Assembly (NCBI GenBank): GCA_040285855.1
Contig: JAUFOQ010000002.1
Span: 3,534,001 to 3,598,000 of the forward strand
Reading direction: 5' to 3'
Source of the DNA: Eukaryota sp. GEM-RC1
Lineage: Eukaryota
Length of the DNA stretch: 64,000 nucleotides
The notes beneath the pieces are model-generated. The model saw only the letters and a list, made by a program, of their open reading frames with translations, was not told the DNA's origin and searched no databases. The translations under genes were made by a program, and so were the position numbers. Shown here one piece after another: positions 8,276 through 64,000 of the stretch. Position 1 is the first letter of the stretch; each line of letters starts with the position of its first letter.

Positions 8276-8458
8276 AAGGTTGTTGATGATATTCTTTTTT
8301 TTGTAATTTATAATTTCAAGAGTTTTTTGAAACGACGTTTGCATTTTTATACAAAACAAACACAAAAGATATTGAGTATTGAGTGTACAATATGTTGAAG
8401 CAACACACACAAGTCAAAACTGCTATGGTTTCTCCGAAGTGATTCCAAACTAATCGAA

Positions 8459-33684: not shown

Positions 33685-34412
33685 GACAAGGGTTGATTCA
33701 AAAAGCAACGCAGAGAAAAATTGAATTTCGGTTCGGGAAATTAGATGACTTGAACCATCAATAACCTTCTTTCTTTTAAACTAGTTCTAATTAGTGCTCA
33801 ATGCGTGATTAATGTTCTAGAATTGTATATAAAATGTAGAAATTCGTGTATCTACAGCTCCAATCAAAAATCAATAAGGCTGGACTTTATCAAATTGGAA
33901 CTTGACGATCAACTACGATCAATCATGATTACTGTGTTCTTGCAATGATTGAATTTAGTAGGAAAACTCTGTAAGTTGTCAGTCAATGCTATTTAAACAG
34001 AGCAAATCATCTCTTATCACATTTCGTTTTCTAAATTCAAATTTGAATTCAAATTGGACTATCAATTCAACTCCTAATATTCCACTCCTAACGCTTTGTT
34101 AGCATCAAGTATCTGGTACGAACATAACATTAATTGTATTTCATGGTTTATAAAATTTACATGATGCTATAATGCTAATACCGCATGGATTTTTAGTTTT
34201 CATCATCTGAACTTAGGAATTAATCACTTAGAGGCTTATAACAAAGCTCAACTTCTGCACATACATTGAGTTTAAGCCAAGAACATTCTGTCAACTCTGA
34301 AGGGATTCGATAAGGATTCACTTCGTGTCTGTCAGTTAGTCCATGACCCTCATTTATTGATGAAGTTTGTCCTTTAAGATGACACTGTGTTGGTTGATTT
34401 CCAAAACATGAA

Positions 34413-34484
34413 TCGGTCATAGTATAGTGGTGAGTATCCCCGCCTGTCACGCGGGAGGCCGGGGTTCGATTCCCCGTGACCGAG
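34413..34484 (+). tRNA. tRNA-Asp (GTC)
   Basis: 72 nt. Acceptor stem TCGGTCA/TGACCGA, D-loop AGTGG, anticodon loop CTGTCAC, T-loop GGTTCGATTCC, downstream T-run (Pol III terminator). Confidence 0.97.
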
Positions 34485-34662
34485 TAATATTTTTTTGTCA
34501 AAATTAACATTATATTTCTAAAACGAATATGAATTTGTAAAAACAAACAATATTACTAGCAAGACTAATTCCAAACGACTTCGTCTCTCTGTGGTAAAAG
34601 AGTACGTTTTTCAACATTAACTTTCACATTAGACTGTAACATTTGATGAGTACATGTTACTA

Positions 34663-35227
34663 CACTGGTTGGTCTAATTACTCTCATCAGCTAATTAGTC
34701 TCAGTGAGATTAATTCTAAAATTGACCTTTGAATTTTGTCAGTGAGACTATAATCCAAATAAACTCTGTCTGTATTTCTGCTATTTTTTGGTTTTCATAT
34801 GCCTTATTTTAATGGACCACCTTCATGTCTTTTCATGACCGATCTTTGCAGCGTTTGGTTTCGTTTAAGCACACATCGCTCGACCTCAAAACCCTGCTGT
34901 TAGTACCTCCGACGAAGATAATTGGGATTCTGATGGTATAACGAACTAGATAAGCTGTAGTTAGACGTGGATTCTGTTTGAGCAATTAAACATCACTCAA
35001 ATGTACCTTGTTTTTGAAGAACATAATGGAAAATATTCGGAGTGTCTATATGGGAATCATATTATCAATGTTCAATAGTTTTTCGCAATGAATAGTAATA
35101 AGCAATGGTAAAGTAGTCTTCAAATTAGTCTCATCAGATAAATAATCTCAGTGAGACTAATTCTAAAATTGATGACGAAAACTTCTTTGCAAATTAGTCT
35201 CATTGAGACTAATTAGACAAACCAGTG
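34663..35227. mobile_element. TA-flanked MITE
   Basis: TIRs CACTGGTTGGTCTAATTA / TAATTAGACAAACCAGTG, TA on both sides, internal AGTCTCA/TGAGACT repeats. A solo end of the same family lies at about 42795-42933. Confidence 0.85.
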
Positions 35228-35229
35228 TA

Positions 35230-36010
35230 GTATTTCCTTTTGCAATTTCCCTTCGACTTGGTAAAGATGCTCTAATTTTTAGAAAGTTTTCTACATAAAG
35301 AGCGAACAAGAAATTTGATTTTGAGTTTTGGTTGAATGTTATTGTCTTTACAATATTTAAAACAATTTCTTTTATGATTTCGAAAGTTCGATTAGATCTG
35401 ATTATTTTCTACAAAGAAAAAAGCTGATATGAGTTTTAATGGAAATGCATGTTGCTTTAACTTTAATGATATTGAGTTCTAGTTTTGGAATTTATCTTTA
35501 AGTTATGGTTCTGGAGTTAAGTCCATCTTTTCTTCAGCAATGGCTATTCGAAATTCTGAAACGGTTCAAAAATTAGTCAAAATGCATCCAAAAGAAGTGT
35601 TTTGTGTGTTAAACCTCAAATTTGTCAATTTTGGATTGATAATCCTATTTTCCCAACAGAAGTTGCAAATGCTATTGATAGACTTCCTAAAGGTAAAGCA
35701 GCTGGACATTCAGGCATTTCATTTGATTTGTTGAAAGCTGCTGGCAAGGCTGCTCCAGAAATTTCTGAAGATCTTTCTAATTACTTTCAACAGATGGTAT
35801 GTTTGAAAGTTATTCCTCCAATTGAATCGACTGCTGCTCGATTTATTGCTTGAGTAAAACCAGGTAACGGAATTAAGCCTGATGGAATCCGTCCAATTGA
35901 AGTCTCAGAATCAACTTCTCGTTTATCCACTTCAATTGTGTTTAATCCAGTGGTCGATAAAGCAAGTCGCTTTATGTCTCCATTTCAATGTGGAATTAAG
36001 ACAACAGAGA
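35230..36010 (+). pseudogene. RLE retrotransposon fragments: 3' tail (35230-35500) plus N-terminal RT region (35500-36005)
   Basis: KFDFEFWLNVIVFTIFKTI tail, then LPKGKAAGHSGISFDLLK...ARFIA*VKPG..DGIRPIEVSE..SRL...SPFQCGI (CRE-like RT domains 0-2). Confidence 0.75.
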
Positions 36011-36049
36011 GCTTCTGTTGTAAAGTTAATTTGACAACAAAAAATATTA

Positions 36050-36121
36050 CTCGGTCACGGGGAATCGAACCCCGGCCTCCCGCGTGACAGGCGGGGATAC
36101 TCACCACTATACTATGACCGA
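36050..36121 (-). tRNA. tRNA-Asp (GTC), identical second copy
   Basis: Exact reverse complement of 34413-34484. Confidence 0.97.
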
Positions 36122-36852
36122 TTCATGTTTTGGAAATCAACCAACACAGTGTCGTCTTAAAGGACAAACTTCATCAATAAATGAGGGTCATAATGGACTA
36201 ACTGACAGATACGAAGTGAATCCTTATCGAATCCCTTCAGAGTTGACAGAATATTCTTCGCTTAAACTCAATGTATGTGTCACACACGAATAAATAGGTG
36301 CAATTGCAGTTGAAGCTCTGTTATAAGCCGTAAAGTGATTAATTCCTAAGTTCAGATGATGAAAAACTAAAAATCCATGCGGTATTAGCATTATAGCATC
36401 ATGCAAATTTTATCAACCATGAAATACAATTAATGTTATGTTCGTTCCAGATACTTGATGCTAACAAAGCGTTAGGAGTGGAATATTAGGAGTTGAATAT
36501 TAGGAGTTGAATTGATGGTCCAATTTGATTTCAAATTTTAATTTAGAAAACGAAATGTGATAACAGATAATTTGCTCTGTTTAAAAAGCATTGACTGACA
36601 ACTTACAGAGTTTTCCTACTAAATTCAATCATTGCAACACCACAGTGATCATGATTGATCGTAGTTGATCGTCAAGTTCCAATTTGATAAAGTCTAGCCT
36701 TATTGATTTTTGATTGGAGCTGCAGATACACGAATTTCTACATTTTATATACAATTCTAGAACATTAATCACACAATAAGCTCTAATAAGAACTAATTCA
36801 AAAGAAAGAAGGACGATTCTATTGATGATCACAGTTCTAATACTAGAAAGTA

Positions 36853-38899: not shown

Positions 38900-41800
38900 A
38901 TTGACATGAATGGAAGTCAAAAACAACCTGTACAAAATTAAAATATTACAGTTTCAGTTTCGTTGAAAAAATACACAAATTATATATTACAAGGGTACTA
39001 AAAGGACCCAGAAAGAACTCTACAAAACAGAAATCTCTCGCTACTGTAAACTGGCCACGTATTCTCGAATCACTTTGACTTGAGAAATGATATCGTCACC
39101 CAACATATGTAAAAATTCAACAGTTGTCAATTCTTCTTCATGTAAAGTTGATAACGTCTGTCTAAATACTGAAAAATAGAAAAAGAAATTACAACAACAA
39201 AGATAAGGAAAACAATCAACATCCAATTGGTAAATGATCCAACAACTTCACTAAAATCAGATTTTAAATATTCTAAAGATTGCAAATTCAATTCATAGCA
39301 CGTAGAACTGGAAGTCAAAATTTCATCAATAATTGAATTGTATGGAACATTTTGGTTCAAAAAAACCCAGAAACATAACGATTAGTTAATGAAACGAATC
39401 CAGTTATTGCTGCATGAAGACCATGATTAGTCTCGACAACTGCCAAACTCGTGGTATCGTCATTGTAATTGGTTTGAAATAACAATGAGAGGGAGAGCTC
39501 CATGGACGTCAGCAGCCAACAGAATTTGATTGTGCAGTTGACTCAATTTTAAAACAGATCTTTCCGCTTCAATTCTGTGCAATTCACTTTCAAAGCCACT
39601 AATACTAGACCTCACAATATCAGAAGTAATTGATTTAACCAAAGCACCCCGTCTTGAGGGTAGAGAAGACAGATTTGGGTAGTTAGAAAGTAAGTTGGTA
39701 GATAAAAAGGATAATAGTAGAAACATTGAAAGAATTAATAGCAATACAATAAGAGATAGAATGTAATGCTTCGTATACTTTTCAACTAGAGCGACCTTTA
39801 GCTTTTGTTTTACGTGTGACTTTTTCTTCTCTTTTTGGGGTCGCAGAGGTTGAAAAAAGAACAGAAATGACGATGATTAAGCCAATCAGAGCAACTAAAA
39901 TGAGTGCAATTAGTTTAAAACTTTCCTGAATTGCTGTAAAATCAATGTGAATTATCCCATAGATTTCATCAAACGAATCATCTCTCATTTTTTCAATCAA
40001 ATTGCCGATATCAATTGACATTTGATCAAATTGTCTACTTGAAGTAATTGCCATAGATAGATTAAATTTCAGCTCACAATCTCCTTGTAAATCCTCCTCT
40101 TCATTTGTAAGAAAATATGGCCGATCAAGCTCAGTTGAATCTGGATCTTCAGCAACATTCCAAGTAACATTCTCAAGTCCAAACCCTGGATAAACTCCAT
40201 GGTTTAAAGCATAAAGGCCAAGCTTTGTTGAGACTGAACCCCAGTAGAGGTAGCTTGTCCAAATCTCCCTGATTGAATCAACAATAGGTAAAAGTAATTC
40301 ACAAACAGACTTAAACTCAGTATTTTCACATATTGAGTCTTGGCTAAGTTCAGTCAGAATGGATTCGAATTCAGTAATTCTAGAAAACAAGATACTGGTA
40401 TGGAAGAAATTTACTGAAACTTGAACTATTTGAAATATCTTCTAATGGTATTGAAAGCATATTGAGCGCTCACAATAGGATCATAAACTTCAAGGATCAT
40501 AAACATTGACATCCTGATTGAGTTTACTAGCGAGAGGAATGTTTTGAATAGAAAAAAGATTGAAATAACAAGTAATGAAAAGGTGACAATGAAACAGATC
40601 GCAATAAAAACTCGACAGAATCTTAATTTTGAATACGATTTCCAAAAACAAAAGGAAATAGATCAAACATAGAGTAGCAATAATTGCAATAGCAAACACA
40701 ACCATAATTGTTGATAACAATAACAGTGTGATAACATGTGTTTGTGATAACATGTTATAACAAACATGAAGAATCTTGTGATAACATTGGGTCTTTATAT
40801 GGTAAAGTTTTACAAAATAAACTACAACCAAAAAAAGGGTTTGTAGAGGTATTGGTATCTCCTTTGTTAATATTGGTGATGATCTTTATTTGTAATTGTA
40901 AATAATTTACCAACAAACGGTATTCGTGTAGGATCACTTGTTTACTATCGGAACTGTAGTTTTCAGTTAACTCAAAATCATCTTCCACAACTGAAGAAGA
41001 CTGGCCACCAAACAACACAAACAATATTACCTAATGATCAAAATAATCATTTGAAATCCGTCTTGAAGGGTATTCCTCAAAAAACCCCAAAAAAGTGAAG
41101 GAGAAGACAGAACCCGAAGACGAATCTGACTATTTGAAGAGATTGACGCTGAATAGACAATTGATCACAAGTAGACCGTGTGCGCAGAACACGTGAGGAT
41201 AACTGAGTACGGGCTTCAGTGACCACCCTCTGATGATTTACTAAAGGTACAGTAGTTTTGTTTTTGTGTGTAGTTTTTGGTGAATTTCTAAAAAAGTGCT
41301 TGATAGCAGTGTAGGTATTTCATAAACGGTAAATCACAAATCTTCTTTGTTATAACATGTGATAGTAAGTTATCACATTTTGTTTTTGTGATTATGGGAT
41401 AACGTGTGATCACAAATGGTAGTTGGTTGTTATCAACAAGCATGAACACAACAATAGTAAACTCAATAATGAACTGATCTGTAAGAGAAAGAACGTTTTC
41501 CAGTCGTTGATTGGCGATTATTTGAGCAGAATGATCAATAGCAATCATGAGCTGTTCAAAAACTCCAAGTCTTCGAGAGTCAACGACCAAATTTCGACCA
41601 ATTATGACCCTTTCCATTTGAGAAAGTCGTTCTGTGTCACGTTCTGGAGTGGAATACCAGTAATCAATATGAGGGTGCTCCAATTGAGTTCGGAAGAAAT
41701 TAGTTTCAAGAGAAGAATCGTAATCAAAGCTAACAAAATCACTGAAATACTCATGAAGGTCAAATACAGATTTAACTAATTCAAAAATGATACGTTCAAC

Positions 41801-45482: not shown

Positions 45483-46523
45483 AAACACCCTGTGCAATTC
45501 TACAAATTGAATTGAGTCTTTATATACAAAGCAAATGAAGAGAACTAGGGGTGGGCCATTCGTTCATTGCCAAAGTAGATGTAACAACCATGTCAATGAT
45601 GAGATCAGTGGTCAACACCAAAATGTGGTGATGTCAAATTTTGACCAATGAAATTGAACGAAGAGTTCAACTGAAGACATTCACGTGCTGTATCTTCACA
45701 TAAACCATATTTGTATATGGGAGGAAGGATGAATGATCATGTCTTCACATCATGATCTATGTTCGATCCACCCATCCTCTACCGTCTTCTTCTGCATGTA
45801 GGTGGGATACCTATGTCACATAGTACACATTTTATCATTTCTGCGCTGGTATTTGTTCTTACAACACGATGAACTCTTCGTCTTCGTATCTTAAGGTTAT
45901 AGTATTGGTTTAGCAGAGAGGTGATGGCGATACAAGAGAAGAAGTCTTTCAAGTCTGAGAGGTGATAAATCTAAACACCTTCGTTTTGAGAATGGTGCGC
46001 CTTCGACGTTATATCTTTACTCTGTTGACTCTATTCACAAGAGATGTTCTTAGTGCCTTCTTCCTCCAGCAAAACGTCTCTACTGAAGTCGTCGTCCGTT
46101 TTATCACTGTTAGTGATGTCAGGAATTTCAGGATGTTGAGAAAGAGATTCATGAATGTAAAGTAGGAGAGAAACGCCACCATGGAATCATCCCACAGAAT
46201 CAAAAAAGTCAAGGGGAGAAAGTCAGTCAGTCCCAAATTCCACTAGCAGGGATTGTATACTGCAGCTACCATATACAAAGACGGTGCTAAGTCAAAGTTT
46301 GAATTAAGATGATTAAGATGACCCATCGTAAATCTTATTCATTCATCTAGCGAGACCATTGGGATCATACAAACAATTCTGAGAACAACCACTCAAGAAC
46401 CTCTAGTCTACTGTACTTATTTACCAAAAGATTCTAATCATTGATGTAAAATATTTTTCTGAAAGTAACGAACCTGTAGTTGAAATCCAATAAAATCCAC
46501 AATATTTCATAAATTTCTTGAAC

Positions 46524-48322
46524 ATGACTACCACGACCTCCACGGTGACGTGTTCACTTGCCAAATTTTTTGACCCGCCAGCTCGGACAGTGATGAACAG
46601 GCAATTTCGGTACCTTCGAGACGTTGCTGTTCACTCAACTTTACTGGCCCGGGTGTTTGTGCTCCAGCACCCCCACTTAGCACGCTGGTTGACTGACCAG
46701 CGTTTCTGGTACCAGTGCTTTGGGTTCGTTGCTCACTCTGAGCCGAAAGTAAACCGCCCCTTTGAGAACGACAATGGAGTGTACACTGCACTGCATCTGT
46801 CATCAAGTCTTCCACCAGTATCCATTTGGCCGTTCCCTCCTCTTGGCCGACACAAACCGACACGCTGGTGTTACTCACAACTCTTGAGTGATAGGTCACG
46901 ACAGTTGTCTGAAGCTTTTCAACAACTGATGGCCGATGGTCCAGTCAGTTGGAAGCTGAACTTCTTCCGGACCGCTGCTGTATTCCTCGACTGCCCGACC
47001 CCTAAGGGATACGCTTCTGCTGTCGTACGTGGTGCTCAACCTGGAGCATCACTGCAGCAATGGTGGAATGCTCATCACCAGCAAACTCTGGCCACCTTTA
47101 ATCACTTAGTCGGGGATGTTGTCCTGTTCAATAATCTTTTGACAGAACGGTCTGTTGCCCTCAATGAAACGAACACCTCATTTCTGTTCACAGCTGGATT
47201 GAACCTGTTGTCTGCTCTCGAGGATGCTGCTCCAGATTGTATGCGCCGCCATGCTCTAGTTCCAATGGCCAGCTATGCTCCAGTGTTTGTATCATTCTCT
47301 CAGGAAGTGGAGAGACACTTCACAGAGTTCAACTTCTCAAGGACTCTCAAAAGTAACCCACTGAAAACGTTTAGAAAACGCCCCCGTTTCCAGACTTACA
47401 CCCTGGCCTCTGATGGTGTAAGTTTGAGGATAATTTTTCCACAAAGCCGAAAAAAACAAGGAACCGCCCTACCAAGGAGCAGTTTGAGTCAAGGAGGGCC
47501 AGTGGCTCCGAAGACTTCAAGGTTAAGTCTCGAAAGAGAAAGTGTAACCTACAGAAGAAAGTTGCTCCGTCACGATGACGTGCGAGAACAGCTGATTTCG
47601 AACCTCCTCCTGATGAAGATTGGTTATGGTGTGCAATTGATCCCAACCACAGTAACCTATGTGGTTGGTCTATTGGAACCAACACTGACTATTTATTGGA
47701 CTCTGGAATTACACTGGCACCAAAAGCCAAGGCTATCAATACTGTTATGTTTGGTGCTTTGAGCAACTCTACGTCGAACACCTATTCCGTTCAGAACATG
47801 TACATGTATCTGCTCGAGATATCGACCACTATTGTTGATCAAAATATGAGTAAGAACAGTCTAGAACGGTGTTTATTAAATGGGAACAGGCCCAACCTAC
47901 GGAGAAACAAGTTCGATTTCTTCATAAGAAAACAGAAACGATTTGATTTATTTGCTCAAAATTTGAAAAATATGGCACAAGGAAGCCAAATCAGAGTTTG
48001 GTTTGGAACAGGAGGTGCTAGCCCATCTAGGCAGCAAGTGAAGTCTCCAAGAAAGGGATTCCTTCAATATCTCAAAAGATTCTTTCCCGTTATTATGGGC
48101 GATGAATACTTCACTTCCGCAAAAACTAACTGCTGTAAAGTGAGGCATCAGTTGATATATCATGAAGTAGATGGAGTAAGAAGAGTGATTCACGCCATAT
48201 TTCGATGTCCAACATGTACTCAGGTTTGGTCAAGAGATATTTCCGCCTCCAGAAATCAACTTGAGATCGCTATAGAGGGTTACTTATTTGGAACTAGGCC
48301 TGAAGCTTTCCAACGTACTTAA
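46524..48322 (+). CDS. Fanzor1 (eukaryotic TnpB-like RNA-guided nuclease), one -1 frameshift near 47580-47590
   Basis: N-terminal TVTCSLAKF, LASDGVSL. The second frame has RuvC-I CAIDPNHSN (Asp 47639), VWFGTG...SPRKG, RuvC-II GDEYFTS (Glu 48104), Zn ligands TNCC...CPTC, and RuvC-III WSRDISASRN (Asp 48236). Confidence 0.88.
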
Positions 48323-48724: not shown

Positions 48725-49813
48725 TTTTTTATCTGCTAAAGATTTGGTATCATCCTTGTCTCCTGAAATGTGGGAATCTTTGTTCCCTGCTCATTTGAAG
48801 GAGACTCCTTTAAAAAATATTTCATCTCTACCATCTGCTGTATGTAAGCTGCAAAATAAATTGACAAGGAGTTTGAACTCTTGGACTTTAATAATCGTAT
48901 TAGCTTGGCTAAAACTAATAGTCCCGAGTTCGCTGCTTTTTTAATCGATCTTTGTAATAGTGGACCTTCTGGATTTATTTCTCAAATTCCAAAGGTGTAT
49001 GGATTACATCTATCTGATGAAGCTTGGATGATCAATATGCGTCTTCGTTTGGCTATTTGGCCTGCAAATTTATTAAACTATTCAACGTGCTCTTGTGGAG
49101 CTAATGGTGTTTTTCGTCATTTAATTAATTGTCGTTATTTTATTCATCTCCGTGCAGTAATTCATGATGGTGTACGTGATTCTTGTTATTCCATGTTTAA
49201 AGCACATGGTTTTCACTCTAAAGTTGAACCAGTTTTGAATCATCTTTCAGAAAATGAATTTACTGATCAAAAAGAGGGGATCTACATACTCCGTGGCTTA
49301 AATCGAGTCAATCATTAATGGATTTTACTACAGTAGATGTATGTAACAAATCTTGTGTTAGTAGGATATTAGATTCTTCTTTTAATCCATTTACAGCAGC
49401 TGAAAAGCTCAAACACTCCAAGTATGACTCTCAAGTAGAAGAATTAAATAGAAACTCATATTCCAAATTTGTGTTTCAACCTTTTGCTGTTTCTCTTTTT
49501 GGATCTATTAGTCCTGCTGGTGATCAATTTTTCAAGGATTTCGAAGAATTGTGTAAAGAAAAGAAGCGTAAGTTTAGAATGGCTGAATGGAAAAACCGTA
49601 TAGTGTTTTCCATATATCGGAATATGCCTTTCTACTTCTCTAGATTAATTGAGAAATTGTACAAGTTTGGTGTGAAGGTTAATGTTGATAAACGTAATCT
49701 TTTACCGGGTGGTGATGAAGTCGTTTGGATTTAATCTTAGTATTATTTGTTTGTTTTTACAATTTCATAGTTTGTAGGAAGGTTACCTTATTGGGTGCCG
49801 AATAAACATCTTT
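48725..49813 (+). mobile_element. 5'-truncated RLE non-LTR retrotransposon
   Basis: CSC...HLINC, HDGVRD, DFTTVD, AEKLKHSKY, FQPFAVSLFG. 12-bp TSD AATATAGATGGA (48713-48724, 49814-49825). Nearly identical to 63648-64000. Confidence 0.9.
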
Positions 49814-52310: not shown

Positions 52311-52888
52311 AAAAATGAAGACAATCGTCAATAAATGTCTTGACTGACATGACACTGTAGACACATCTATAAATATTAACAACCCACAAAATGGTCCATT
52401 TTTTTGCTCACATGTCGATGTTCATTGATTCGACGGCTATGAGAGGCCTGTTTTTGGTGGGAAAGTCATCCTATCAAATCAGGTGGAATTCTACAGAAGC
52501 AACTTCTGTAGATATCTTGTATCCATACAGCCTGGGTGGGACCGGGCGGCAATATGCTATTCAAAGGCATCATTGTTCAAGCAAAACCCCAAGGAAGGCA
52601 TTTTTGGTCATTGATCCAATTCAATCCAAATTTTTTATTTTTTCGAAGTCGAGGGTTTTTTATGGGAGTATGTGTGTTGTTTTTGGCAGTCAGGCCTATC
52701 ATTTTTACATGCCCAGCATGGTGATAGAACCACCAGGGCAACACACTGCTTTCCAGCCCCCAAACTTGCCTCCTTGTAAAATTCAGTGGATCGGTGGTGG
52801 TGGTTTTGGTGGTGGTGGTGAAATTTTATTGAAGTGTCGTTTTTTGCAAATTTCTGTCAGTTTTGATTGTAGACTGCAGTTCAAAATT

Positions 52889-52930
52889 GATCTTACGTCT
52901 GATGGTGATGTGGAATCCAATCCAGGTCCA
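52889..52930 (+). other. 2A-like ribosome-skipping (StopGo) peptide
   Basis: DLTSDGDVESNPG|P in ORF 52391-53023 is an exact D(V/I)ExNPG|P consensus with the typical upstream L..GD. Confidence 0.85.
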
Positions 52931-53058
52931 CAATCTAATCCCAATTCTGATCCCATCGGTACAAGATTGAGTCTTCCTTTTATTCGACTTGATGATTCGA
53001 CTTCCATTGTTCCCCCCTGTTAAAAAAAAGTCGAGTTGATAGTGATTCCAGTCCTCCA

Positions 53059-54066
53059 ATGTCCAATCTCGAAATTTTAGCAAGAGTTGCCAAAAAAGCT
53101 CAAGTTAAAGCCAAATCACGGAGAGCTCCCTTGAATATTAATGGACAACGCCTGTCTAATAGAGTTTTTCCTGCTAAGAAATCTTGTCTCAAAGCTTTGA
53201 GGAAAATTAAGCCACATGACAACAACGAAAAACAGAATTTGATTGAATTCGGATGTGCTCAAGAACACCCTAATACTTATGCTCTTCCCAAGATTATGTC
53301 TATTGACCTGGAGACAATGCATCATGATGATGAAATTCCAACAGCTATTACGGAGGAATTAAGCAAGCTTCGAGGAAAGGAATCGCTGAAGTTAAAAAAG
53401 ATGAATTCAGAAGAGCATGATCGATGGATTGCTAGCCAAAAAGTTATGTCAGTTGCATAAATTTTTGGCCGTTTTAATGAAGAAAATTTTTACGAAGAAA
53501 AATCAATTATTATCTGTGTCAACCTTTGTGCAACAAACCTACCTTCTCCAATTGAATGCAGTTTATCCCCAAGAACTGAAATCTATGTTGTGCCCAATGA
53601 GTTGGTCCTGCTCCATATATTGATAGACGTGATTCAAGATTACCAGCCAAATTTCATTACTGGTCACAATATTATTGGATTTGACTTCAAAGTTTTGGAC
53701 AAGCGTTTCCAGTTTTATCAGTTCCCATGGCCTGTTAATTTCCAAGAATCCAACCTTAATCTTTTATCTAAAAACTGGCGTGAAGTTGTTAAAAATATAC
53801 ACGGATACTTGATACTTGATACTTTATTGTTCGCAAAACGTTTTCTCACAATGAAATTTGGAAACGATTTACCATCTCTTACACGAAATCTGATACACGA
53901 ATTTTGTCTCAAACTTAAAAAGGAAGAACTTGGAAATCTTTTGCCCATTGATTGTTGGTGTGAAAGTACACTGGTCTCTCTCTTAGTTGATTACAATTAT
54001 CAACACGCCAACTTAACTTTAAAACTTTGTATGCAATTCCAGAAAGAAAAATTTATTCTTCCAACT
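53059..54066 (+). CDS. DnaQ-like 3'-5' exonuclease domain of family-B DNA polymerase type (one in-frame TAA at 53458)
   Basis: ORFs 53059-53460 and 53590-54114 are the same frame, separated only by TAA. ExoI KIMSIDLET (Asp 53305, Glu 53311), NELVLL...QPNFITGHNIIGFD (ExoII), GYLILDTL, ExoIII-position YNYQH (His for Asp). No polymerase domain follows. Confidence 0.8.
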
Positions 54067-55506
54067 TATAGGATGGTAAAGTCTACTCTTCCACGAATTT
54101 TGGAAGCATCGTGATGTCTTTGAAAACATTGTGCAGCTAGCACCTCAATTTCACGAACTTCGTCGCCATACCCTACAATGCCTGCAATTGTTTTTAACAG
54201 CAAGATTTGAACGTGGAGAAGCGTTACCTGAAATCACTGAACAAATGATTACGTCTGTAATGACTCGAATAAATTATCTTTGTGCCCAATTTTATGGTCA
54301 GCCCTATAAACGACCCAGTAGTGCAATTGATGCGGACTTAGAACGATTTGTCATGGGAGAAGCACAATTCGACAGCAACTCAATTCACAAGGGCTATCGT
54401 ATTCAGTTAGAAGCAAATGAAGGCCATAACTTTCCAATGTTTCCTCCTCAAGGCTTCTCTAGACCACCAGAATACATTGCTCCAGTGCTCTTGTGTAACA
54501 TTAACAACAACTTGAAACTCCACTTTGGAAAACATATTAATCGTTTCATTAACGTATATTTTGGAAAAAAGCAGTCTGAAGAAGAAATTTCAAATTTAAT
54601 TAAAGAGCTGCCAAGAGAAGAACGACCTGATCGTCAACAAACTTTAACTTTGTATCGTTTTGCTCTTCGACAGATTAAAGACATTTTTACTGCTGAATCT
54701 GTCGATAACTTCAACTTGTTACTTTCAAATCAATTTTGCCTAGAAAAGTTTGAAGAAGATTGGAAGGATAAAGCAGGGGAAAAAGGAATGAGACCTCACG
54801 AAAAAGACTTTTTATACGATGCCTTTATTTACCCGTATGTCGTTGAAAAATTTGAAATTTTGCAGAGATCACCTCCTTTTAAATTAAGAGTGCTTCGACC
54901 ATTTCCTCAAATTTCGGAACTCGAAAAAAAGCCTCAATTATTCATGCCGGCAGCCATAACTATGAATCGTTATGTGAAGGAGAAAGAAGAAGCGGCTTTT
55001 CACTGGTTTCCCGCTGTAACCACGGTAATCCCAGGCTACTTTCCTATTGATACTAGAACTTTGTGGAATATCGTCAGGCAAAACAAGAAAACCAAGGATC
55101 TGAAGTTAATGAACAACCAGGCTGAGGTGACCAAGTTCAAACCAAAAGACCAACATGATTTTTGGAAAATGTTTGTAAACTTCGATTTAAAAGAATTCAA
55201 AAGAAAGATTATGTGTTCAACAACATTATCCACAGTGACGGTCAAAACTGTTCAATTGAGTTAGTTAGGCGTGACTTTGCTGGTGAAAAAAGAGGTAAGG
55301 ATGATTTACAAGGAAAGATTAAAGAAGTTTATTGTAAAGACTTGAGAGCAGAAAAATTTACAACAAAAAAAGTAGTTGTCTGTGACCCTGGAAAAAGGGA
55401 TCTACTTTATTTTGGTGGAAGAAATGAAGAACAAATTCAAGAAAACAAGTGTAATTGGCTGCGACTGACACAATGCAAATGGACTGTGGTAGCAAGAAAG
55501 CAATGA
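54067..55506 (+). pseudogene. Second Fanzor1-like protein, truncated after RuvC-I
   Basis: N-terminal YRMVKSTLPRI (in the exonuclease frame), HTLQCLQLFL...LPEI, NINNNLKLHF..HINRFIN, FP....IPGYFPIDT, YVFNNIIHSDGQNCSI, RuvC-I VVCDPGKRDLLY (Asp 55384), LRLTQ. Frameshifts at T4 (54098) and an A-run near 55205. No RuvC-II or RuvC-III downstream. Confidence 0.8.
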
Positions 55507-56173
55507 TAACTCCAAGTGATCGTGCTAGAGCTCCAAAGTTCAATATCAAGGATGAAAGAACGTGCATTAGACCAATCGTCATCATCAACGTCAAGAAATA
55601 CGTTCCTGACAAGGGTCGAGTCAGAGTCATCAGGTAGAGGGAAGTAAAGAGAATGCATACATGAATGATTTCCTGTTTGTGATCATACAGTGGGTGGTAA
55701 AACTGGTGGTAATGTCTTTGAACAATGTATTTAAGCTGACCTGAACTTAGTACAATACGGAACTCAGTAACTGGAGAAATGTATTTGAAAGGCTTTAGTT
55801 CAATAACAGGAACAGTTGTAGAGGTTTCTAGAGCATCACAGCACTCATCTGAGGACTTAAGCAGACAAAGAGCTGATTCAAGATTGTGAACTTTCAAAGA
55901 GCCATAGAGCCACATTGCATCAGTGGCAGCTGTTCCATTCAACTTTACAAAAGTAGATGGTCCTGTCTTGGAAAACAGGAAGAAGATCGCTCAAATCATA
56001 GACTGGAGAATTGGAGTCTTGAGGGATAGTTTGAGGTTCTTCTGTACACAGGAGTATTAAGTAGGAGGTTGTGAGATCAGAATGGAATCTGCAAAAAATT
56101 GTTGAACATCAGAAAAAACGGCACAAAAGAAGTTGGAAAACATAAGAAACACGATTAAATGAGTAAAAATCAT
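55470..56173 (-). CDS. CDC123: CDC123/D123-like ATP-grasp protein, frameshifted; limits approximate
   Basis: FVKLNGTAATDAMW..GSLKV...LLKSSD, EFRIV...IVQRH, and in the adjacent frame VFLDV...FILDIELW match CDC123 motifs. Confidence 0.65.
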
Positions 56174-57356
56174 GCAGTTAAAGCAGTATGGAAAGAACTT
56201 TTAATGAAAGTTACTGGAGAAGAAGGATGTCGCTTTCCCTCTTTAAAACATTGTTTAGGTATTTTGATTCGATTTTAAACCGTATCTTTGAATTGAGACA
56301 TGAATTTGAGATGGTGTAGAGGTATTAGTATCTCATTTGTTAATATTGATGATATTCCTTATTTATAATTGTAAATAAAAAGGGTTTTTTAATATATGAG
56401 TAATTGTCGATTTGTTATCCTGTACTGTATCACATATCATGCACCTATGCTCTTCGTACATGGAATCACTTCTTTTGGTTAGAGTTAGATTTTGTTGCGT
56501 GGTTCATATAGTTTCTTAATGGAGTAATGCCACGTAAGTTGCAGCTTATGCATAATACCATAGTTACTAGAACGCCCTTTTGTCATCAAGTTAGTAAAAG
56601 AAAAGCAATACGTGATGATTTTCAAAATCATGTACTGTTTAAGAGTAAAATGAATACGTAAAACTATATTGGGAGCCGATAGCACACGAGTCATTTCACT
56701 AACACTGGGAAATATGTCTACTTTAGACGCCCCCCACCGCCCAATTTACAATGGTTGTCAAACAAACAGCAAATAAGGCAAAACCAAAAGTTGTTTATGG
56801 AAAAACTGAACCTACATGTCGAACTTATTCAACAATACAGTGGTTCTCAGAAAAAAGTTTTTGTATTTGAAGAAACACAAATCTGCCCAACTGAATTGGC
56901 AGATGATCCTGTCTACCCTGCCCAATTTAGTGACAATTTTGAGTTGTACTCTTATTTAAACAGTCATATTAAACTGAACCACAGTTCAGAACCATTGAAT
57001 ATAACTGACAATAACTGAGGAGACGATACTTATGTGGAAGAAATGTTTTTAAGCAGTAGAATCTGTTTGTTAAGGAAAAAATGGCAGAACCCACAAATGT
57101 GATAGCTGTGATTCAAAAACACGTGTAGAAACACGTAAACGAACATCATACTAAAAAAATAGTTCAAACAATAGTTGTCAATAAACAAATGGAATATATA
57201 GTGCAATTTAATTACAATCACAAGATTCATGATTGGGAAACCAACATCCGGCTTGGATTCGTCAACAATGCGTTTGATTGAAAAATAATCAAAAAAACAT
57301 GGCTGCGAACCCCATTGAAAATGAAGCAGGGCTTTCGTTAAGTTATTCTAATTAAA

Positions 57357-58730: not shown

Positions 58731-60239
58731 TTACGACATAGAACAACAAGTAATACGGCCGTTGGAAATTGTCTGAAGGCATTGTGCTGTTTCGAAATCA
58801 ATAGAATTATCCTCAAAGAGAATCCGAGTAATCGTCGAATTCACCTTTAGAGCTTCAACTAAAGCCATTGCACCTTCATATCCAATAGAGTTGCTGGTTA
58901 AGTTAATCTCAATAACGGAAGAATTTACTTTCAAAGCTTCAGCTAACGCTATAGCACCATCATCACCAATAGCATTAATGGCTAAACTGACATCAGTAAT
59001 TGATGATTTTGAATTCAAAACTTCAGCCAATGCAATGACACCTTCATCACGTATATAGTTTACATCCAAATTAATCTTCGTAATGACTGAGTTCTTGTTT
59101 AAACCCTCAGCCAAAGATATGGCACCTTCAACACCAATGGAATTATCCACAAGAAAAAGTTCAGTTATAGTAGAATTTACTTTCAACGCTTCTGCCAGCT
59201 CCAGTGCACCTTCCTTGTTGATAAAGTTACCATCAAGACGAAGTTCAGTGATGGACGAATTCACTTTTAAGGCTTCTGCAAGTGATACAGCTCCTTTTGG
59301 TCCAAAATAATGGCCTGTTAAATTAATGACAGTAATTGTGGAATTGACTTTAAACGCTTCAGCCAATACTATTGTTCCTTCAACCCCAAACAGGTTATGT
59401 GCCAGATTAACCTCAGTAAGTGAAGAGTTGGTTTTAAAAGCTTCAGCCAATGCAACAGCACCTTCATAATTAATGGAGTTAAAAGCTAGATTAATATGTG
59501 TAATATTTGAGTTAACTTTCAAAACATCTGCTAGTGATTCAGCACCTTCATTTTCAATCAAATTCCACTGAAGATTTAAATTTCTAATGGTGGAATTAAC
59601 TTTCAAAGCATCAGCAAAGACCATGATGTCGTCATCACCTAAAGAATTGGACTGTAGATTAAGCTCAACAATTGTAGAATTATCTTTCAACATCGCCACC
59701 GCTACAAGAAAAGTAGACGATTCAACATTACAAAGATGAAGTCGTTGAAGATGTGGAAAGTAAGAAGATGAAGACTTGTCAAGAAAAGTCAATTGGCGAG
59801 GGTTCCTCAATTCCATCTTTAATCCTGAAATTAAATGTAAAGAACTATGGAATTCTTCAACTTTAAAGAGATCAAACACGTGTAAGAAAAGCAATTGAAC
59901 CTCTGATTTAAAGAAGGAAGCGATTGAAGTAAGAAGAGGGAGGTCTTTAGAATCTATGTGGAACGTGTTTGTTCGGAAAAACACCTTGAAGGCTAGTAGA
60001 GTGGATTCAAAGAAATGGTGACTTACATAGCCAACTTTCGTGAAGACGTAGGGAATTTCAATTATCAAACGGCGGAGGGAATGGTCGGGAACAGAGTGAT
60101 CAACAACAAGAGAAAACTTTAGGAGACTTCTAAGCAAGTGAAAGATTATCAAACTCAACAACGACTGCTGGAAATGAACACGTCTGTGCAGGAGTGGAGT
60201 GGGTGGACCAGAGATTGGTTTCGGAGAGTTTGTCAACAT
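58731..60239 (-). CDS. RI-like/NLRC3-like 28-aa LRR protein
   Basis: About 11 repeats of GAxALAEALKVNSTITxLxLxxNxI. Confidence 0.9.
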   Translation of the reverse strand: MLTNSPKPISGPPTPLLHRRVHFQQSLLSLIIFHLLRSLLKFSLVVDHSVPDHSLRRLIIEIPYVFTKVGYVSHHFFESTLLAFKVFFRTNTFHIDSKDLPLLTSIASFFKSEVQLLFLHVFDLFKVEEFHSSLHLISGLKMELRNPRQLTFLDKSSSSYFPHLQRLHLCNVESSTFLVAVAMLKDNSTIVELNLQSNSLGDDDIMVFADALKVNSTIRNLNLQWNLIENEGAESLADVLKVNSNITHINLAFNSINYEGAVALAEAFKTNSSLTEVNLAHNLFGVEGTIVLAEAFKVNSTITVINLTGHYFGPKGAVSLAEALKVNSSITELRLDGNFINKEGALELAEALKVNSTITELFLVDNSIGVEGAISLAEGLNKNSVITKINLDVNYIRDEGVIALAEVLNSKSSITDVSLAINAIGDDGAIALAEALKVNSSVIEINLTSNSIGYEGAMALVEALKVNSTITRILFEDNSIDFETAQCLQTISNGRITCCSMS

Positions 60240-63200
60240 ATCATCTGTTGCAATGAAGTTTGAAAGAACATCTGATCTCTGACATCATTGTCATGATGTC
60301 TTCTGTCTGCCTCTTTCATATGCTTGTTCTTGAACCTACTCTCTTGAACAGACGTCTTTCCCCTTTGTCATCCCATCCTCGTTCATTACATTCCATCACA
60401 GCTCTTTGGTACAGTTTGTGTTGATCTCTATACTTTCGTTTTTTTATTGTGTTTTCAGTTGTACTTATTTTCTTGCTATCGCATTCTTACGTCTTTTCAA
60501 TATCAACTTTGTAGCTCTGTGAGTTTTCTACTTCTGACGGGACAGACAGTGGAGAAGTTTGACCTCTTTATTCCAAATCCAGAGTAATTTTGGTGATATC
60601 ATTAACATTTTGGAAATCCCTGGTTGTTTCTTTTTTAAAATGAATGATTTAGTGAATCAATTTCATTGATTTGTTATTAATTTAATTCAATTTGGGTCGT
60701 TTCCGTCCACCCAAGAAATCAATGCACATAACATAGTCTACAAAACATTATTTCCTACTACAACTGGTTACAGTGTATTTGAATACTTCTCGATCTATTT
60801 TTAAATTTTCGTTTTAATTTGCATGATGAGAGAATATTCCATCATCATAGGTTGATTAAGGACAATATGGAACCAATATCAATGAATTTGGTAATTGTTA
60901 ATACATCTAGTTCTGTTTAAAACAAGAATTGAATTAAAGTTCGGAAGTAAAACAATTTATTGTTGTTTTCATTTACGGCTACTCCCTAGGTCAATCTGAA
61001 AAGAGGGCTTGTCTATTTCTAAATAACTTCCGTTTATATTATTGACAAGATTAGTTGGGGTAATCAATCTAACTGACGGGCACTGAAAATGGACCTGTGC
61101 GATGGTGATTTGATTGTGTGCCAGTCTCTTAAGAAGCTGTTTAATCATCCTTGGATCCACTCAAGCCCAAATAGAATTGAATAAAAAATATTGAACAATT
61201 GAATTTTGTAACATCTTTGTTAAAAACTTGATTTCTTCAGTCAAAGTGGTGAAGTCGATTTTGCAATTGTGAGCCTTTTAAGAGGTGTAATTGCCTTAAG
61301 AGCAGAGAACATCAGGTCAAAATTTCGAGAACATCATTGAGGGTTAATTGGCTGAAAGACGAGTCAAGGTACAACGAATCAAAACTGATTGACCATACAA
61401 AGTAAACTATGAAATAGAAACCCCTGAGCTTAACCGTATAAGCCTCCCTCTTTGATAGGGCATCTATTACGTGGCGGGACTTATCTGAATTCCATCATCC
61501 AAATTTTAAATTAGTGTTTTCACGTCCTAAATTTTACATTTATTTAACAGCACAACTTCGGTTACGTTCATTCTTCAATGACTTCGATACCAGATTCAAG
61601 AGCATCTTCATTTCTTCTTCTTGCTTTATCCAAGTACGAATTGTTTTGATATCAGGAATCCCATAAAGTTGGCTATCTTGTTTTTGGACATTTACTGAGT
61701 GTTTACCTTCCCTAGAACTTCACGCTTTAACGCAAAACTGTAGAATCGGCGCTTTCTGGTTAACATCAAAAATGACTGGAAGACAGAAGGAGTGCAAGAA
61801 GATGTCAATTTGGTAAACAAACTACTTTTACTATATGTTACGAATAAATGGTTTTTAATAATTTGAATTTCTCGAAACTTCAATTTCCTGGGGCTTCTAT
61901 TTCATAGTGTATTTTAAATCAAGTTCTTTGATGTAGTGTACCAAATTGGAAAAACAAGTTCTCCACCTTAAGAATCATATTAGACTAGACAGCGAGACAA
62001 CTTTAAGTTTTCCCAATCTAATTTCCAGAATGAATGCGATGATTGCTTTCGACTGATTGCTTTCTTTTATAATACAACTGTTTCCAATCAGTGAAAGATA
62101 AATGGGAGAAGAGTCCTCAAATCAAAATCTAAAGAAGTCTGTGTTTCTTCGTCGAGTCATTTCAAATACAAAATTAAGTGAGAAGGTGATGAAAAGTGAA
62201 ACAGTTGAGGTCTACTTTTTCAACGTTTTTAACTAAACTCGGAAAAACGCAAAAACGACGTTTTCCATTTTTTGAAAACGCTGTGAAAAGTATAGAAGTT
62301 CCCCAAAAGTGATTTAGTTATGGATACATGAGATGATCGTCACTCAGTTTGGGTTAGTTTGGTTTAGATGTCGTGACCTAAGCAATACAGGATCCAACGT
62401 TTGTTGTAGGTTAGCTTGATGTTTCTTGTACGTAATGGATTTATTAAACGTCATCCTATATGTAAACGTCATCTTCCGCGACGAAGATCTAGATATTCAC
62501 CATCAGATGAATTTCGACGGAAGTGAACATTGAAGTGTATGTTCAGATTTTCCTGTTTATCCTTTTGAAAGTAGAAGTGCTCTTTTGGAAGACAAATCCA
62601 GACGTCATGTTAATATAATTGATCTTTGGGTTCATTAGTATTTCCTTCTTTTTAAAGATATTTACTAGTAATTATTACGACATATATCCACATTTTTGTT
62701 GAAAAACAAATTTTGCCCAACACTGATCAATAATAGTCCTAGACAAAACACCAGGTCCTTGCTTTTACTCTGATATTTTGTTAACAAAGTTTGGTTTTTT
62801 TAGAATGTATGACAAATATTTTGACATGTGGCCACATAAACCTGGTAATGCGAATCAAAGAAACTCACGCTTCCGACACGAAGCGATATCTGAAATTTTG
62901 TCGGTTCTATTCATTCAGGTCACTTTTTTGAAGTGGGTAGACTATACTTCTATCTGAAATCATGTTTGAGCTACTATTGATAGTGCCGTAAGTTCCAAAA
63001 GATTTGACCAGCAACTTAGTCTACAGTCTGACTAGTATGGGTCCTATCAGAACTTGCTTTTTCTGAAAGTAAACAGCTCTGAACTAATGAAGTGGAGTAA
63101 TAACTTGTCAAGTTAATTGAAATGAGGTTGTGTGTAGGCTATCTATTTTTGCATCGATTTATGACCATAAACCCCGTTTTTTGTGTAGAGTTTTATAGAA

Positions 63201-63290: not shown

Positions 63291-64000
63291 ATGTTATCTT
63301 TAGATGTGAGCAAACATGTTTCCTTTGCTATGCTTCAGGTCTGTTTTTCCGGGAAAATTAATCATTTTTTACGTTCATTAGACTATTCCCTTACTGAAAC
63401 ATTTGCCAAGAAATTTAATTCTATTAGAACAAATTTTCTCTCTAACTTGGCTGAAATTGATGAGTCTAACATTCCATTTCATGCTTTTTATTCTTCTGAA
63501 TTCGCAGGAGTAGGTTTCACCCATGCAAAAATCATTAGAAAATCTGCTCTTTTAGGAGGTGTTAAGAATTTTATGTTTGAATTTTTGAAACGGTTTCCCT
63601 TGGATGGAATCAATCTGTTGAATTCCAGTAATTGCCGTTGGATTCAATCTGCTAAAGATTTGTTATCATCTTTGTCTCCTGAAATGTGGGAATCTTTGTT
63701 CCCTGCTCATTTGAAGGAGACTCCTTTAAAAATATTTCATCTCTACCATCTGCTGTATGTAAGCTGCAAAATAAATTGACAAGGAGTTTGAACTCTTGGA
63801 CTTTAATAATCGTATTAGCTTGGCTAAAACTAATAGTCCCGAGTTCGCTGCTTTTTTAATCGATCTTTGTAATAGTAGACCTTCTGGATTTATTTCTCAA
63901 ATTCCAAAGGTGTGTGGATTACATCTATCTGATGAAGCTTGGATGATCAATATGCGTCTTCGTTTGGCTATTTGGCCTGCAAATTTATTAAACTATTCAA
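63291..64000 (+). mobile_element. RLE non-LTR retrotransposon ORF fragment (post-RT region), runs off the window
   Basis: KINHFLRS...FAGVGF thumb-like region. 63648-64000 is nearly identical to 48731-49086. Confidence 0.85.

Follow-up and report, generated by a model that had tools for sequence, protein, structure and literature searches.

The window analyzed here, a stretch of 64,000 nucleotides from Eukaryota sp. GEM-RC1 (assembly GCA_040285855.1, contig JAUFOQ010000002.1, positions 3,534,001 to 3,598,000 of the forward strand), contains a 2A or StopGo motif within a leader open reading frame (ORF) that precedes exoA, a gene for an exonuclease of the family-B DNA polymerase (PolB) type, which is followed in turn by the N-terminal half of a Fanzor-like protein (table 1). 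We consider this locus a decayed member of what is probably a family of mobile elements in which a 2A heads a cargo of this kind. Judging from its name, the source organism is most likely Skoliomonas sp. GEMRC (Metamonada); the strain names TZLM3-RCL and TZLM1-RC, under which the sister species discussed below are recorded, are reported to belong to Skoliomonas, a free-living anaerobic metamonad (PMC11603281, PMC11316075). The genome reported for Skoliomonas sp. GEMRC has 33.5 Mb, 36.9% GC and 48% of repetitive sequence (PMC11316075).

The motif, DLTSDGDVESNPGP, spans exactly positions 52889-52930 of the plus strand, in the frame of a stop-to-stop ORF (52373..53023) that translates as ...CRLQFKIDLTSDGDVESNPGPQSNPNS... 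and reads ...FLQISVSFDCRLQFKIDLTSDGDVESNPGPQSNPNSDPIGTRLSLPFIRLDDSTSIVPPC* down to its stop codon. The complete StopGo consensus recognized in the preliminary description of this DNA is indeed present, with the core DVESNPGP at 52907-52930, and the predicted skip point would fall after Gly (codon 52925-52927) and before Pro (codon 52928-52930). No other NPGP emerged from a six-frame scan of the window, where chance would produce D[VI]ExNPGP 3.2e-5 times and GD[VI]ExNPGP 1.0e-6 times, given the window's own trinucleotide frequencies; in the 33.5-Mb genome approximately 0.016 such octapeptides would be expected. These values, together with the recurrence of leader plus 2A in seven gene models, sustain the earlier judgment that the match is improbable by chance. 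Since scanning about 250,000 windows would nevertheless yield several chance octapeptides, the conservation of the motif matters and was therefore looked for. Upstream, the 2A frame is free of stops for 172 codons, with a probability of about 3e-5 at the stop frequency of the window (0 of 20,000 shuffles remained open), while each of the remaining five frames has 4-12 stops over the same stretch. In-frame ATGs precede the motif at 52391, 52670, and 52709, and the leader gene models of other copies begin at the second (MCVVFG) or the third (MPSMV) of these. The motif does not lie at the extreme N-terminus, for up to approximately 180 codons are open ahead of it. The leader ORF matches no Pfam family and nothing in Protein Atlas.

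A query of 50 aa around the motif retrieved three GEM-RC1 clusters among 13 candidates, which together with their members amount to seven leader-bearing gene models; the ORFs of the window are letter-for-letter members of GEMRC1 hypothetical-protein clusters (P0002, P0014). Repeats were masked before gene prediction, according to the genome report (PMC11316075), and annotated copies consequently under-count the family. The core D[VI]ExNPGP is intact in five of the seven models and altered in P0012 (NVESNPGP) and P0011 (DVESIPGP). Two models are of the type found in the window, henceforth A-type: P0014, which is the window's own leader model of 104 aa, and P0013 from the same contig, both ending in ...STSIVPPC*. 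In the five B-type models, the 2A continues in frame beyond ...PIGTRLSL as SSLGTEPAHKKKTVLSESPLQFLEAEELYLFLDIESL... into a different gene of PolB-type exonuclease, exoB; P0017, P0012, and P0010 reach the exonuclease domain and P0015 and P0011 break off early. P0017 (475 aa) has the order MPSMV start, 2A, exonuclease (PF03104, E 8.9e-19), and P0012 and P0010 are organized likewise. The leaders of A-type and B-type are 91-96% identical, whereas their exonucleases show 28% identity over 47 aa while remaining colinear from ExoII to past the domain (hhalign, probability 96%, E 4e-9). This disparity implies either an exchange of modules or a much stronger constraint on the leader. The ORF context of a 2A, a frame that runs on into the following protein, is not seen in the window copy, in which only 30 codons separate NPGP from the TAA at 53021, but is present in P0017, P0012, and P0010 as well as in P0175, P0026, and P0178 of the sister species.

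In the cargo of the window, the exonuclease is identified by its PF03104 domain, which at 53461-54111 scores 54.6 bits against a curated cutoff of 23; its paralogs and homologs reach 35-68 bits. The polymerase domain PF00136 was not reported by Pfam in the window exonuclease, its paralogs or its homologs. In seven paralogs (P0001-P0007; 94-97% identity over the exonuclease and what adjoins it), the region is a single protein of up to 802 aa, with Leu at the position of an in-frame TAA of exoA (53458-53460). The catalytic residues of these exonucleases lie in three motifs, ExoI DxE, ExoII Nx2-3FD, and ExoIII Yx3D. In exoA the first two are present as DLE (SIDLET) and NIIGFD (GHNIIGFD), while ExoIII reads DYNYQHA, with His at the Asp column. 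This His is common to the window copy and all the paralogs that cover the column (region 53900-53990; P0001-P0007), so that the A-type lacks the full PolB catalytic set; the ExoIII Asp is kept in the B-type (YCINDVE) and in the sister-species homologs, such as P0018 (YCFQDSV), a relative described below. Querying the exonuclease among proteins of near length found no match, and a PDB sequence search with P0007 found only marginal matches to the ExoII of herpesvirus polymerases (E ~0.45). Protein Atlas placed P0007 in PolB-exonuclease clusters with a score of 0.75, which is a lead only, and by structure in a DUF8286 cluster (TM 0.26/0.42). The DUF8286 family itself (PF26935) is precomputed for P0001 and was not returned by the local Pfam scan.

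In the Fanzor part, the window copy has frameshifts near 54100 and near 55200, both at short homopolymers when compared with the paralogs, and two consecutive stops at 55504-55509. Its homology to full-length relatives ends at 55497-55566, and RuvC-II, the TNB zinc finger, and RuvC-III are consequently missing; of the split RuvC (D, E, D) with TNB that marks these proteins, only RuvC-I is found. A fragment of D123/CDC123 type stands, antisense, in place of the C-terminal half of the Fanzor, and could be either a captured piece of a host gene or a rearrangement junction. The window cargo is thus a pseudogene, by the in-frame TAA at 53458, the two frameshifts, and the truncation of the Fanzor after RuvC-I. 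The earlier statement that only an exonuclease and a Fanzor follow the 2A stands insofar as a PF03104 domain is succeeded by Fanzor homology, and has to be amended in that the latter is an N-terminal half and the whole is degenerate. The companion statement, that neither reverse transcriptase nor endonuclease follows, agrees with our Pfam analysis: no reverse transcriptase or apurinic/apyrimidinic (AP) endonuclease was found in the ORFs from 52373 to 55503 or in 37 other window ORFs of at least 110 aa. The pair of enzymes that lies downstream of 2A in 2A-bearing non-LTR retrotransposons is accordingly absent here.

Table 1. Features of the 2A-exonuclease-Fanzor locus (positions within the window)
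Feature	Position	Strand	Evidence
Leader ORF, first in-frame ATG to NPGP	52391..52930	+	Open frame; repeated in 7 gene models
2A/StopGo motif DLTSDGDVESNPGP	52889..52930	+	Matches upstream motif 4 of PMC12846837
Core octapeptide DVESNPGP	52907-52930	+	Fits (D/G/C/N)(V/I)ExNPGP core
Post-2A tail, 30 codons, ending at TAA 53021-53023; C6 run, then A8 run	52931..53023	+	Sequence; P0013 ends the same
exoA, family-B DNA-polymerase-type 3'-5' exonuclease domain gene	53059..54105	+	PF03104, E 1.4e-14; paralogs from MSNLEIL, with 96-97% identity here
Fanzor-like N-terminal half: DUF8286 region, then WED/RuvC-I	54104..55566	+	phmmer matches
RuvC-I motif VVVCDPGKRDLLYF, Asp codon 55384-55386	55372..55413	+	Aligns to IDPGK/CDPGK of P0018, P0029, P0030, P0031
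D123/CDC123-type gene fragment	55655..55969	-	PF07065, E 2.2e-10, covering only 84-203 of the 300 profile positions
Repeated segment ending ...GTAGAGGTATTAGTATCTC..TTAATATTGATGATATT	56181..56358	+	85% identity to 7033-7208; last 64 nt 89% to 40842-40905

What the intact cargo looks like can be appreciated from its relatives. A phmmer search with P0007 against 1.84e9 representative sequences returned 256 matches at E<=1e-3, the best of which, P0018 from TZLM3-RCL (1281 aa, E 2.8e-83), reaches from the exonuclease through a complete C-terminus of TnpB/Fanzor type, with RuvC-I and RuvC-II, a zinc finger (CxxC), and the region of RuvC-III. Residues ~610-800 of P0007 match many proteins of ~650 aa (down to E 9e-21), thereby showing homology of the WED/RuvC-I region to known Fanzor and TnpB-like members, and the Cas12f1-like_TNB domain (PF07282, E<=1e-3) is present in 10 of 25 such proteins that were sampled, and also in P0031. 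From the span of P0018 and the TNB of the ~650-aa matches, the cargo family can be defined as a fusion of exonuclease and Fanzor. An [NH]PGP scan of 182 proteins then located a 2A upstream of the homologous exonuclease in four of the eight clusters from outside GEM-RC1 that cover the exonuclease, all from Eukaryota sp. TZLM3-RCL and TZLM1-RC, and in the form W-x-K-DLTxDGD(V/I)(E/H)xNPGP. The 2A of P0025/P0174/P0175 is NNWIKDLTADGDVHKNPGP, at residues 62-248 depending on the model; those of P0026 and of the 1192-aa model P0178, both from TZLM3-RCL, are NSWKKDLTVDGDIHPNPGP and NSWKKDLTVDGDVEANPGP, respectively, and P0059, from TZLM1-RC, is a model with the truncated start MDEDVEANPGP. In P0178, the order is 2A, Ulp1-like protease, exonuclease, and complete Fanzor, with Pfam returning Peptidase_C48 at E 0.0018 (below cutoff), PF03104 at E 1.2e-8, and TNB at E 0.0095 (below the curated cutoff, as is the TNB match of P0029), while RuvC-I, RuvC-II, and the zinc finger are recognizable in its sequence. 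In P0178 and P0026 alike, the Ulp1/C48-like domain (GAHWSLL ... NGFDCGVY) follows immediately on the 2A and precedes the exonuclease. The parts upstream of the 2A are 82% identical between P0175 and P0026, and neither resembles that of P0178 or of the window. Since the flanks differ among subfamilies and the cargo is ~26-33% identical to P0007, the motif appears as a conserved island.

A degenerate DNA pattern, DLTxDGD(V/I/M)(E/Q/H/D)xNPGP, picked out 61 loci in metagenome contigs, where tblastn with nine proteins of the family matched the motif region only and found no exonuclease-Fanzor relative; P0017 likewise matched 96 pattern stretches in metagenome contigs, none of which was confirmed. 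Several of these loci carry a motif-4 2A (see below) with His at position p14, such as WVHDLTRDGDVHKNPGP, DLTKDGDVHPNPGP, and DLTIDGDIHPNPGP, the same rare core variants as in the elements of TZLM3-RCL (L005, L009, L017, L022, L026, L027; also L024, L028, L032, L034, L050, L051, L053). Pfam analysis of ten ORFs with the p14 = H variant gave nothing in nine and RING plus MLLE in L051.

Taken together, the seven leader models, the four of eight sister clusters, and the 1192-aa model indicate that a 2A before an exonuclease-Fanzor cargo is a conserved architecture. The explanation we favor, and regard as probable, is that the motif is a genuine 2A in the 5' leader ORF of a multi-copy family of skoliomonad mobile elements encoding a PolB-type exonuclease-Fanzor, whose intact members would likely skip at NPG|P. 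It builds on features observed directly, namely the motif, the open leader frame, the repetition in the genome, the exonuclease lying in frame in gene models of siblings and sister species, and the homology to exonuclease and Fanzor. The claim of the preliminary description that the 2A lies upstream of a DNA-acting cargo consequently holds, in frame, for P0017, P0012, P0010, P0175, P0026, P0178, and P0059, and not for the window copy, whose frame terminates at TAA 53021. The same document envisaged that other copies might consistently end at this TAA and belong to a separate element: the A-type P0013 does end there, whereas the B-type copies run into the exonuclease.

This situation creates a question for the window copy: How was the frame between 2A and exonuclease lost? 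The 2A ORF closes 35 nt short of the ATG of exoA (53059) and is out of frame with it by one base, and MSNLEIL, encoded from that ATG, is the very start of three further A-type models; in this subfamily the link between 2A and exonuclease looks broken. The earlier description is right about the C6 run (53012-53017), the stop codon TAA (53021-53023), and the A8 run that follows, but the notion that the length of the C6 run decides the frame is too narrow, for that run is one of 27 possible positions (52994-53020) at any of which one added base would produce a 356-codon ORF from ATG 52391 to TAA 53458. Insertions upstream of 52994 run into the TGA at 52993. One could accordingly retain the favored explanation for the family and attribute the break to an error in the assembly, with one more base in that interval (for instance a C7) and the A-type 2A in frame. 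The assembly relies on Nanopore R9.4 sequencing with Illumina correction in a genome that is 48% repetitive (PMC11316075), an under-called homopolymer would be a systematic error that could recur in every copy, and all three frame differences from the paralogs occur at short homopolymers; moreover, the 2A is in frame in the B-type copies and in the sister species. Yet we consider an assembly error unlikely, given the reported coverage (116x Illumina and 119x Nanopore; PMC11316075) and the identical end of two A-type models, with three more starting at MSNLEIL. In addition, tblastn aligns the B-type linker to the 2A frame of the window through the TAA to 53053 (PAHKKKTEL.. vs PPC*KKVEL..), which suggests a different history, in which a substitution turned AAA into TAA and an indel of 2 nt arose near 53041, rather than an error in the C run. 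A frameshift-aware alignment of the same linker to the window DNA is forced by a long A-type insertion and does not place the loss of frame. Whichever history is correct, the nonsense codon at 53458 and the truncation of the Fanzor, which would remain even if the two frames were fused, leave the window copy non-functional. Two further ways of joining the frames were considered. A canonical -1 frameshift heptamer at C6/A8 was rejected, since GTT CCC CCC TGT TAA contains no X XXY YYZ in register, and an intron between 2A and exonuclease is unlikely because the B-type protein is colinear through the stretch.

The marked divergence between A-type and B-type cargo raises a further possibility, that leader and 2A form a separate module, the 5' part of a B-type element, which by recombination or insertion came to lie upstream of an unrelated exoA-Fanzor and was never in frame with it; the leader would then be at most an upstream ORF, and exoA would be translated from its own ATG at 53059. 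This would account for leaders that are 91-96% identical next to exonucleases with 28% identity over 47 aa, for the end of A/B similarity past ...PIGTRLSL (52975), and for the TAA that closes the 2A ORF in both A-type models; besides, the closest relatives of exoA in TZLM3-RCL (P0018 and P0170) have no 2A in their models. We judge it quite improbable nonetheless, as the post-2A linker of the window retains a residual likeness to that of the B-type (KK..S.S..P...LE), the two cargos are of one kind and colinear, and a 2A before the exonuclease recurs in several distant subfamilies, which argues that the association is ancestral and not accidental.

Comparison with characterized StopGo sequences bears on whether the motif is functional. 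The StopGo core is reported to be widened to (D/G/C/N)(V/I)ExNPGP and can be preceded by upstream motif 4, defined as DLTxDG within W-V-(R/K)-D-L-T-x-acidic-G, with the G at p11, which goes with D at p12 and S at p15 and gives almost 100% StopGo in reticulocyte lysate (PMC12846837). The window motif reproduces DLTxDG, D at p12, and S at p15 in register. It differs from the viral motif-4 sequences in having F-K-I at the position of W-V-(R/K), in all seven GEM-RC1 copies, and in belonging to a cellular DNA element rather than to the polyprotein of an RNA virus; the sister-species homologs keep the W of motif 4, as W-K-K or W-I-K. Natural variants with N at p12 and H at p14 are reported to have >95% activity, the former in native context (PMC12846837), and precisely these variants are encountered in the elements, N at p12 in P0012 and H at p14 in P0025 and P0026. 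An identical 14-mer is listed in Table S2 of PMC12338488, solely in Symbiodinium-type entries, as class A and with activity not tested there; the supplement of that paper contains no skoliomonad entry, strain name, accession, or homolog motif variant.

A skeptical view of these data would be that the motif is a fossil devoid of recoding activity, for example the remnant of an RNA virus or retroelement carried along in a conserved 5' region. The replacement of the signature W by F in every GEM-RC1 copy and the altered cores in two of seven would be in line with such decay, and the use of StopGo by cellular genes is described as a rarity (PMC12846837). We hold this to be very unlikely, since the motif holds its register in subfamilies whose cargos are only ~26-33% identical and whose flanks show no likeness, since the core variants are those reported to be functional (PMC12846837), and since the upstream frame is kept open, with ~0.016 chance occurrences expected in the genome.

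In the favored explanation, a genuine 2A before the cargo, translation would start in the leader, the ribosome would be stalled by the nascent motif-4 peptide, Gly occupying the P site and Pro the A site, release of the leader (~63-250 aa across subfamilies) would follow, and translation would resume with a Pro-initiated product carrying protease, exonuclease, and Fanzor. StopGo would accordingly operate in Skoliomonas, and the role of the 2A would be either to part the product made upstream, of ~70-250 aa, or any translation initiated there, from the nuclease or to damp the expression of the nuclease. Possible benefits are a nuclease freed of upstream translation, a second and separate product, and a smaller amount of an enzyme that is dangerous. 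The two functions proposed in the preliminary description, a defined Pro N-terminus and the tuning of expression, are plausible. All that the 2A of the window copy, which is of A-type, would yield is a leader peptide plus a tail of 30 residues. From the copy number of the family, the decay of copies, and the presence of a Fanzor, we infer that it is a transposon.

This explanation needs to be qualified in several respects, all of which weigh against it. StopGo activity, in these sequences and on metamonad ribosomes, is a prediction, and F-K-I replaces W-V-(R/K) in 7/7 GEM-RC1 copies; in 2A of another class, class B, the change of W to F is reported to cut activity 2.3-fold on average, with five of seven peptides active and two of seven abolished (PMC12338488). 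The TAA shared by both A-type leader models, along with three further models starting at MSNLEIL, implies that this subfamily has spread without an in-frame 2A. Among the sister-species clusters, four of eight show no 2A: P0018 has an N-terminus of 260 aa without NPGP, and the other three begin close to the exonuclease and may be truncated models. The in-frame continuity of the other copies, moreover, rests on AUGUSTUS gene models, at the protein level, and because the B-type models stop at ~475 aa, a Fanzor downstream of exoB is deduced rather than seen. Finally, no transposase, terminal repeats, or target-site duplications have been established for the element.

The known systems closest to the element include the APE-type non-LTR retrotransposons (L1Tc, Ingi, CR1, Crack, Rex1, and L2), whose main ORF is reported to have a canonical D(V/I)ExNPGP towards its N-terminus, and which equally are multi-copy elements with a DNA-acting enzyme after the 2A and copies showing a range of motif mutations (Heras 2006, Odon 2013, PMC3708506). 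In their ORF2, the 2A lies 40-80 aa from the N-terminus, and the functions encoded upstream were proposed to be released as a discrete product (PMC3708506). Here, by contrast, the 2A lies 63-248 aa from the start of the ORF, the cargo joins a PolB-type exonuclease to a Fanzor, in some members behind an Ulp1-like protease, instead of reverse transcriptase and AP endonuclease, and the hosts are metamonads. Most retrotransposon-associated 2A-like peptides are reported to lower protein abundance (PMC13405545), which fits the alternative role of tuning expression. The 2A-like signal sequences of sea-urchin NOD-like receptors (Roulston 2016, PMC4981915) also lie near the N-terminus of a cellular protein and allow two alternative products; in the present case no signal-sequence role is evident and the cargo is the nuclease of a multi-copy mobile-element family. 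Hence, while the 2A itself and its position at the head of non-LTR retrotransposon ORFs are known, we found, in the papers and literature searches described here, no report of a 2A before an exonuclease-Fanzor cargo, nor of a metamonad host. The main texts of PMC12338488, PMC13405545, and PMC12846837 contain no occurrence of exonuclease, Fanzor, transposase, or words starting with transposon, and that of PMC3708506 none of 'DNA transposon'; none of the terms was found in the supplement of PMC13405545, in which homolog variants were not searched.

With respect to Fanzor proteins such as SpuFz1 and MmeFz2, which are TnpB-like RNA-guided nucleases of eukaryotes, the full-length relatives share the Asp of RuvC-I, the Glu of RuvC-II, and the CxxC...C zinc finger, to which the present elements add an N-terminal PolB-type exonuclease, a leader with 2A and, in some cases, the Ulp1-like domain. 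They depart from Fanzor also in RuvC-III: P0018, P0178, P0029, and P0030 retain the other residues and have Asn at the Asp column, and WNRN is found in five out of five members of the exonuclease-linked clade (P0018, P0170, P0178, P0029, and P0030), as against WNRD/WSRD in all eight ordinary Fanzors aligned. The exonuclease of P0018, for its part, keeps DxE, NxxFD, and YxxxD. On these residues, the RuvC may be inactive in the exonuclease-linked clade, with the exonuclease supplying the chemistry. In the literature retrieved on Fanzor with exonuclease, 2A peptide, or Metamonada, only engineered exonuclease fusions appear and no natural one. The window contains also a stand-alone Fanzor/TnpB-like gene (46494-48322, plus strand), which lacks both exonuclease and 2A, lies in a region of higher GC (0.41-0.45) and is split over two overlapping frames; its motifs are IDPN (RuvC-I), GDEYFTS (RuvC-II), CPTC, and SRDISASRN (RuvC-III), and its TNB match (E 9.5e-6) has 26.1 bits against a cutoff of 26.3.

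A bolder proposal, which we put forward as speculative and rather doubtful, is that these elements constitute an undescribed class in which StopGo uncouples the upstream product from an Ulp1-like protease, an intact PolB-type exonuclease, and a Fanzor with Asn in RuvC-III, the latter two acting together as an RNA-guided exonuclease of natural origin, which would bind under the direction of a guide and degrade DNA instead of cutting it. If true, this would be the first use of a 2A by a mobile element at the DNA level and the first natural exonuclease-Fanzor fusion. Exonuclease fusions of RNA-guided nucleases have been made artificially by genome engineers, and these organisms appear to possess natural ones, with a RuvC that is possibly inactivated. 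StopGo has been seen as a device of RNA viruses that is rare in cells, its known cellular users being non-LTR retrotransposons and a small number of proteins, NOD-like receptors among them. Here it goes with a Fanzor fusion that acts on DNA, the hosts are free-living metamonads, and the association is conserved in three species and among several diverged subfamilies, which widens the range of mobile elements that would use ribosome skipping. The family, with either W or F at p3 and either E or H at p14, further lends itself to a natural comparison of how upstream residues tune activity, and is a concrete system in which to ask why mobile elements put a 2A before nucleases: to free the enzyme, to make a second product, or to damp expression.

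As for the limits of the element, the repeated segment at 56181-56358 is a candidate for its 3' end; the sequence shared with 7033-7208 and 40842-40905 may represent a terminus of the element family or, alternatively, a Fanzor guide-RNA region. A weak inverted match of 14 nt (52369-52382 / 56337-56350) was rejected, being no better than two obviously chance pairs in the same output. The entire 2A-exonuclease-Fanzor locus is bracketed, together with a gene of leucine-rich repeats (LRR), by a direct repeat, 48731-49085 / 63647-64000, with 98.6% identity over 355 nt and 14.9 kb between the copies, the second of which is cut by the end of the window. The LRR gene, an ORF at 58731-60284 on the minus strand, 2.4 kb downstream, is made of 84-nt (28-aa) repeats of the ribonuclease-inhibitor type (LRR_6, E 4.5e-34). 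Elsewhere in the window there are two inverted repeats. One, of ~720 nt (4785-5504 / 7562-8277), is 93-97% complementary, flanks ~2 kb, and is accompanied by two ORFs without Pfam family (4826-5578, minus strand, and 7167-7961, plus strand). The other, at 33765-36812, is large and nearly perfect, with arms 94-99% complementary, each of which carries a tRNA-Asp(GTC) (34413-34484 on the plus strand and 36050-36121 on the minus strand).

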